From: Escherichia phage vB_EcoP_EP32B
Strand: one strand, 5' to 3'
DNA: 64,000 nucleotides
Sequence record: OR544955
Shown: one piece after another, positions 8,615 to 9,300 of the stretch
Numbering within the stretch: the stretch's first letter is position 1
How the letters are laid out: every line of letters starts with the position of its first letter
Made by a program: the position numbers and the translations under genes
The notes under the pieces: generated by a model
The model's input: the letters and a program-made list of their open reading frames with translations, nothing else
Told to the model about the DNA's origin: nothing
The model's database searches: none

Positions 8615-8845
8615 ATGTCTACTGAAACTATCGAAAAACTGCAGTCTGAAATCGTTACTCTGAAATCCCGCATTCTTGATACTCAAGACCAAGCAGCTGC
8701 TATCCAGCAAGAATCTCAGCAACTTGGTAGTGCTCTTGCTAAAATAGCTAATCTTGTTGGTATCACTGGCGAATCAGTTAAGATTGATGACCTGGTAGAA
8801 GCAGTACGTGAACTTGTTAAAGCTGAAACCACAGAAGAAGAATAA
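8615..8845 (+). CDS. 57A: tail fiber assembly chaperone gp57A
   Basis: 76 aa coiled-coil protein [29 protein letters not shown]4 gp57A-like. Confidence 0.85.
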
Positions 8846-9300
8846 TGAAATTTGAGGACTTTTCACAAGGCCTCTACGTCGCAGCTAAGTTTTCAGAATT
8901 AACACTTGATGCGCTGGAAGACCTCCAGCGTAAATTAAGAATTCCTAATCCAGTACCGCGTGAAAAGCTTCATTCAACAATTTGTTATTCACGTGTAAAC
9001 ATACCATATACTACATCCAGTGGTAGTTATTCTATTGCCGAATCAGGACACTTTGAGGTATGGAAAACTGACGACGGCGCTGTACTGGTTTTAGTTCTTG
9101 ATTCCGAATATCTTAGATGTCGTCATCAGTATGCACGAGCTTTAGGTGCTACTCATGATTTCGACGACTACACTCCACATATAACGTTATCATATAACGT
9201 TGGCCAACTATCATTCAGTGGTGATGTAGCTATTCCGGTTATTCTCGACCGTGAATACAAAGAACCCTTAAAACTAGATTGGGCCGAAGATCTAAAATAA
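8845..9300 (+). CDS. 57B: gp57B, 2H phosphoesterase (Acb1-like anti-CBASS cyclic nucleotide phosphodiesterase)
   Basis: 151 aa; two H-x-T/S motifs (HSTICY and HITLSY) typical of the 2H family; position after 57A. Confidence 0.7.

Follow-up and report, generated by a model that had tools for sequence, protein, structure and literature searches.

We identified the open reading frame at positions 8845..9300 (+) of Escherichia phage vB_EcoP_EP32B (sequence record OR544955) as a gene whose product is very probably (about 93%) a functional Acb1, an anti-CBASS 2H phosphodiesterase of the T4 gp57B type, in a Mosigvirus. The window, meaning the whole stretch of DNA that was analysed (64,000 nucleotides), is, judged by its sequence, that of a Mosigvirus, an RB69-like T-even phage, the DNA surrounding the gene being 97-98% identical to the Mosigvirus genomes of O157 typing phage 3, HX01, JS09 and mar005P1. 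According to the ORF listing, the frame opens with an ATG, closes with a TAA stop at 9298-9300 and encodes 151 amino acids, for an Acb1-type product of 17 kDa. The protein (57B protein hereafter) is an ordinary, well-conserved member of the well-characterised and already known Acb1 family, and we infer its Acb1 activity, substrate range, expression timing and anti-CBASS effect in vivo by analogy with its relatives.

The assignment to the family comes from several comparisons. A search of the 57B protein against Pfam returned PF23474 (Anti-CBASS protein Acb1) with 196.8 bits (E=1.8e-58), for a curated cut-off of 27 bits, residues 8-149 covering profile positions 1-144 of 144. The best sequence match in the PDB is the Acb1 of Erwinia phage FBB1 (7T26/7T27, E=7.9e-59), and the HST and HIT triplets of the 57B protein align to the HTT and HIT triplets of the FBB1 enzyme 7T26. 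A search of 5.8 billion proteins recovered 86 homologues, all of which (86/86) carry PF23474 and, where they are named, bear the UniRef name "Anti-CBASS protein Acb1". The NCBIfam search gave no family match for the 57B protein, which thus has no curated NCBI name. T4 gp57B/Acb1 itself (NP_049750.1, from NC_000866) is 85% identical to the 57B protein over the whole length. The Acb1-like identity that the preliminary description had proposed for gp57B is thus upheld by the Pfam family, the match to 7T26 and the identity to T4 57B; its statement that T4 gene 57B has been characterised as Acb1 agrees with the published work (Hobbs et al. 2022, PMC9117128).

The same description had reported two HxT/S motifs within 8845-9300, and both are there. 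The first catalytic motif, H43-S44-T45 (T4 H44-S-T46), is encoded at 8971..8979 (+) by the codons CAT TCA ACA, and the second, H112-I113-T114 (T4 H113-I-T115), at 9178..9186 (+) by CAT ATA ACG; H43 of HSTICY corresponds to nucleotides 8971-8973 and H112 of HITLSY to nucleotides 9178-9180. The two histidines lie 69 residues apart, close to the 70 or so announced, and the two triplets are the only H-x-[ST] triplets in the protein, though it has five histidines. Each is followed by a hydrophobic residue (HSTI, HITL), as expected for the 2H phosphoesterase superfamily. We nonetheless rejected the motif pair as sufficient evidence for Acb1, given that at least two HxT/S triplets appeared in 13.6% of 20,000 composition-preserving shuffles of the 57B protein, a rate that drops to 3.0% when a hydrophobic residue is required after each triplet. 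The weight of the pair comes from homology (Pfam Acb1, 7T26, T4 57B) and not from the bare pattern.

Residue conservation was then assessed against the T4 enzyme, whose catalytic tetrad H44/T46/H113/T115 was defined by Hobbs et al. (2022, PMC9117128) and whose H44A/H113A mutant is catalytically dead. The alignment of the catalytic histidines to Acb1 had been set beforehand as the refuting test, and it places H43 and H112 on T4 H44 and H113; the whole tetrad corresponds column for column to H43/T45/H112/T114. In Acb1, Y12, W74, F107 and W147 stack on the bases, E141 reads adenine and residues 145-152 form a lid (PMC9117128), this C-terminal lid being needed for catalysis (10.1101/2025.08.21.671373). 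All the nucleobase-contact residues are kept in the 57B protein, as Y11, W73, F106, W146 and E140. Its C-terminal lid (residues 144-151, corresponding to 145-152 of the FBB1 and T4 enzymes), encoded at 9274..9297 (+) and including the stacking residue W146, reads LDWAEDLK for LDWADDLK in T4, a single conservative change (E148, D in T4). The 23 substitutions that separate the 57B protein from T4 Acb1 all leave the catalytic and contact residues untouched; those nearest to the active site are L42I, which adjoins H43, and F70L, near W73, and both are conservative. T4 gp57B shares HSTICY and HITLSY letter for letter and has one extra N-terminal residue. The FBB1 enzyme, 62-63% identical to the 57B protein, differs more, with HTT for HST in the first motif, a tyrosine for F106 and a phenylalanine for W73, two aromatic swaps that are conservative and found elsewhere across the Acb1 family.

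A family alignment of 34 sequences (30-84% identity range) showed no variation at G9, Y11, H43, T45, S49, H112, T114 and a few structural residues, and near-invariance of E140 (33/34), W146 (31/34) and I113 of the second motif (31/34). The Nei-Gojobori dN/dS was 0.070 relative to T4 (dN 0.13, dS 1.85, the latter near saturation) and 0.047 relative to O157 typing phage 3, and these two values point to strong purifying selection on the sequence of the 57B protein.

The 57B protein was modeled with AlphaFold2 from the 34-sequence family alignment (mean pLDDT 89.4, pTM 0.82), and the model was compared with known structures using Foldseek. It matched 7T26 with an E-value of 1.5e-19, TM scores of 0.87/0.95 and an rmsd of 1.0 Å over 136 columns, and the comparisons with FBB1 Acb1 as a whole (PDB 7T26 apo, 7T27 with 3'3'-cGAMP) gave rmsd values of 1.0-1.8 Å and TM scores of 0.85-0.95. 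The 57B protein is thus predicted to adopt a compact 2H phosphoesterase fold like that of 7T26. Residues 148-151 of the model, within the lid, have a pLDDT below 50, and this weak model confidence is consistent with a flexible lid that may become ordered only upon ligand binding. The further Foldseek matches, after 7T26, were PDE-9 of phage BCSR5, Escherichia coli LigT, a plant CPDase and Usb1; the Foldseek probability was 1.0 for LigT, the Thermus TT0787 2H protein and the plant CPDase, among others.

These more remote matches bear on the name under which the gene is usually deposited. Both PHROG 755 and the RefSeq records of T4 (NC_000866), HX01, JS09 and typing phage 3 label the acb1 orthologs "RNA ligase", which would make the 57B protein a LigT-type 2'-5' RNA ligase or an RNA 2',3'-cyclic phosphodiesterase that works on the ends of RNA, for instance in tRNA repair. 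E. coli LigT and the 2H superfamily (PF13563; PDB 5LDI) carry their two HxT/S motifs on a beta core of pseudo-twofold symmetry, as here, the Pfam profile 2_5_RNA_ligase2 matches the 57B protein weakly (E=0.012) and the AlphaFold2 model finds LigT with an E-value of 5.5e-5. However, that Pfam match (PF13563) reaches only 16.1 bits for a cut-off of 27 and is partial (residues 69-131), and LigT, which is larger than the 57B protein and has RNA ends and not cyclic oligonucleotide signals as substrates, superposes poorly (TM 0.46, rmsd 8.5 Å) when compared with Acb1 (TM 0.87-0.95, 1.0 Å). Moreover, the T4 ortholog is a biochemically demonstrated cGAMP degrader and the residues that grip the cyclic dinucleotide are kept in the 57B protein. 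We consider an enzyme of RNA ends highly improbable and, given the sub-threshold LigT profile and the poor LigT superposition, rejected the "RNA ligase" annotation of 57B; the name appears to be an inherited superfamily-level label.

A more subtle question is whether a true Acb1 could have a substrate range shifted from that of T4, for example by sparing 2'3'-c-di-AMP/cA3 so as to avoid Panoptes, or by acting on another signal. Panoptes selects against promiscuous Acb1, and within this structural group related 2H phosphodiesterases do not all cleave 2'3'-c-di-AMP alike, their specificity residing in the core and not in the lid, so that specificity could be shifted by the 23 positions that differ from T4, among them L42I beside H43 and F70L near W73. 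The instructive case is 2H PDE-9 of Burkholderia phage BCSR5 (PDB 9Q2G/9Q2Y), which shares the 2H core and the structural group and degrades 3'3'-cGAMP, but is poor at 2'3'-c-di-AMP cleavage and hence does not trigger Panoptes (10.1101/2025.08.21.671373). PDE-9 is, however, far more diverged: its authors give 44.8% similarity to Acb1, our structural alignment gives 16-18% identity to the 57B protein, and its lid is on the opposite terminus, N-terminal in PDE-9 and C-terminal, of the T4 type, here. In the 57B protein the known contact and catalytic residues are all identical to those of T4, and 85% identity with a dN/dS of 0.07 relative to T4 is a pattern of conservation rather than of adaptive change. 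Because the contact residues are identical to those of T4, we regard a shifted specificity as most unlikely. A broader version of the idea, in which the 23 core substitutions tune the substrates away from those of T4 (for example toward less 2'3'-c-di-AMP/cA3 cleavage) and the loss of the neighbouring ipI gene reflects host-driven remodelling of an anti-defence island, is in our opinion very unlikely. As to decay of the gene, acb1 function is naturally lost in some Tevenvirinae, as in the BASEL phage Bas43, where it was lost through a nonsense mutation, and neighbouring accessory DNA (ipI and a 4.9-kb block) is gone from this phage. Yet both deletions end outside acb1, the frame is full length with neither frameshifts nor premature stops, the family-invariant residues are all present and purifying selection is strong. 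With an intact frame and this selection signal, pseudogene status was rejected, and we hold an inactivated or decaying acb1 to be practically negligible as a possibility. A functional Acb1 of the T4 type is the reading retained in what follows.

The position of the gene is also that found in T4. The gene order 3 - 1 - 57A - 57B is the same, with gp3 at 7231-7821, gene 1 (dNMP kinase) at 7876-8610 and gene 57A (tail-fibre chaperone, Pfam GP57 E=5.9e-23) at 8615..8845 (+), acb1 lying directly downstream of 57A. The TAA stop of 57A and the ATG of acb1 share one base (TAATG), the equivalent overlap in T4 being ATGA, and the Shine-Dalgarno sequence before acb1 is weak (…gaagaagaataATG). The stop-start overlap and the poor Shine-Dalgarno sequence together suggest that translation of acb1 is coupled to that of 57A, and with such a weak ribosome-binding site the expression of acb1 would depend on this coupling. 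Within gene 1, at 8253..8260 (+), the octamer TATAAATA matches the T4 late-promoter consensus and may be the promoter from which 57A-acb1 is transcribed; it lies 362 nt upstream of 57A, and the same octamer is found in T4 363 nt upstream of the 57A start. The number of TATAAATA octamers across the 64-kb window is not above chance, and the conserved position relative to T4 is the sole evidence that we used for this putative promoter. T4 57B/acb1 is reported to be expressed mostly at middle/late times (bioRxiv 10.64898/2026.03.30.715471), and the placement of TATAAATA fits this timing. A scan of 7000-10500 for sigma-70 promoters and terminators gave hits at chance level (12 found, 12.6 expected) and was not used.

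On the basis of the T4 and FBB1 enzymes, from which the individual steps are taken, the following mechanism can be proposed. A 57A-acb1 message would be made during infection, probably at middle/late times, and acb1 would be translated by coupling to 57A. Acb1 would take up, in a U-shaped pocket, cyclic di- or trinucleotides with one or more adenosines, the candidate substrates being 3'3'-cGAMP, cUA, cAAA/cA3 and 2'3'-c-di-AMP. Y11, W73, F106 and W146 would stack on the bases and E140 would read the adenine N6; the ligand would be strained, and the C-terminal lid would then shut over it. H43/T45/H112/T114 would carry out a metal-independent acid-base cleavage 3' of adenosine via a 2',3'-cyclic phosphate intermediate. 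With the signal linearised, the CBASS effectors would stay inactive and abortive infection would be avoided.

In cells infected with T4, the activity that degrades cGAMP was traced biochemically to the T4 ortholog (Hobbs et al. 2022, PMC9117128), and nine out of nine further Acb1 homologues in the same study cleaved 3'3'-cGAMP and cAAA. Knockout and transposon sequencing established that T4 acb1 is dispensable on CBASS-free hosts and needed on CBASS hosts. The promiscuity of Acb1 toward 2'3'-c-di-AMP and cA3 has a cost, as it leads to the targeting of T-even carriers by the type I/II Panoptes guard systems. Searching the literature for work that directly assayed the Acb1 of a Mosigvirus or of RB69 turned up no such study. 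Since acb1 is kept intact in this phage, we predict, by analogy with T4, that it would resist many CBASS systems and would be vulnerable to Panoptes-type guards, a prediction that could be useful in choosing phages for therapy or biocontrol.

The Acb1 family has already been described by crystallography, entered in Pfam and studied genetically in vivo, and the main value of this identification is a correct annotation, many public records still giving "RNA ligase" or "hypothetical protein". Homologues of the 57B protein occur in 1,469 phage records, and 118 records contain a protein at least 99% identical to it; proteins that are 100% identical are found in GenBank for phages LF82-1 and ECO26.1 3-1. 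Most GenBank records name the acb1 ortholog "hypothetical protein", and among the records listed only 308Ecol101PP names it "cyclic phosphodiesterase".

Around acb1 and elsewhere in the window there are further features, which we describe here as separate observations. For positions 1-25000, a hyperplastic region, the best INPHARED record is that of O157 typing phage 3, which is only 97.8% identical and takes 31.8 kb for these 25 kb; the region is thus about 6.8 kb shorter here than in typing phage 3. This phage lacks ipI (internal protein I), a gene that comes next after acb1 in T4 and in every related Mosigvirus record but is cleanly removed here. Its promoter, its ribosome-binding site and a start of eight codons (MKTYQEFI, 9378-9401) are all that is left; from the breakpoint at 9401/9402 the reading frame continues into the 3' half of the promoter/stem-loop cassette belonging to the next gene, and on into the ORF of that gene. 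The fusion forms an 82-aa chimeric ORF, with a microhomology of 1 nt at the junction, and this junction was found contiguous in none of the 158 matching phage records in which it was sought. The ORF beyond the junction (9441-9626) encodes a 61-aa membrane protein of PHROG 1692 and occupies the position of T4 trna.4.

Relative to O157 typing phage 3, a second deletion of 4,925 bp (L004 673-5597) has its junction at 10870/10871, within 10852-10941. Its left end lies 19 nt inside tRNA-Met and its right end 33 nt inside a 65-aa ORF. Both tRNA-Met and tRNA-Arg are lost, together with some 13 small hypothetical ORFs, and the joined ends form a chimeric ORF at 10759..10941; ARAGORN found no tRNA across the 64-kb window. 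Just past this deletion, a 318-aa ORF (11366-12322) matches Pfam DUF7277 (E=8.6e-28) and DUF7275 (2.8e-79) and belongs to PHROG 2141.

The cassette met at the ipI junction is a repeated element, in which an early-promoter-like GTTTAC -35 and a stem-loop (GTTTAC…GATAGGACTATGTTATAGTAGTCCTATC; stem-loop GATAGGAC TATGTTATAGTA GTCCTATC) stand upstream of small ORFs. Copies are found at about 9315-9428, 11036-11085, 21540-21590, 24250-24300, 25725-25775 and 59010-59060, and in one of them the loop contains the right-hand breakpoint of the ipI deletion. We take this repeated cassette to resemble the promoter-early stem-loop modules of T4-type phages.
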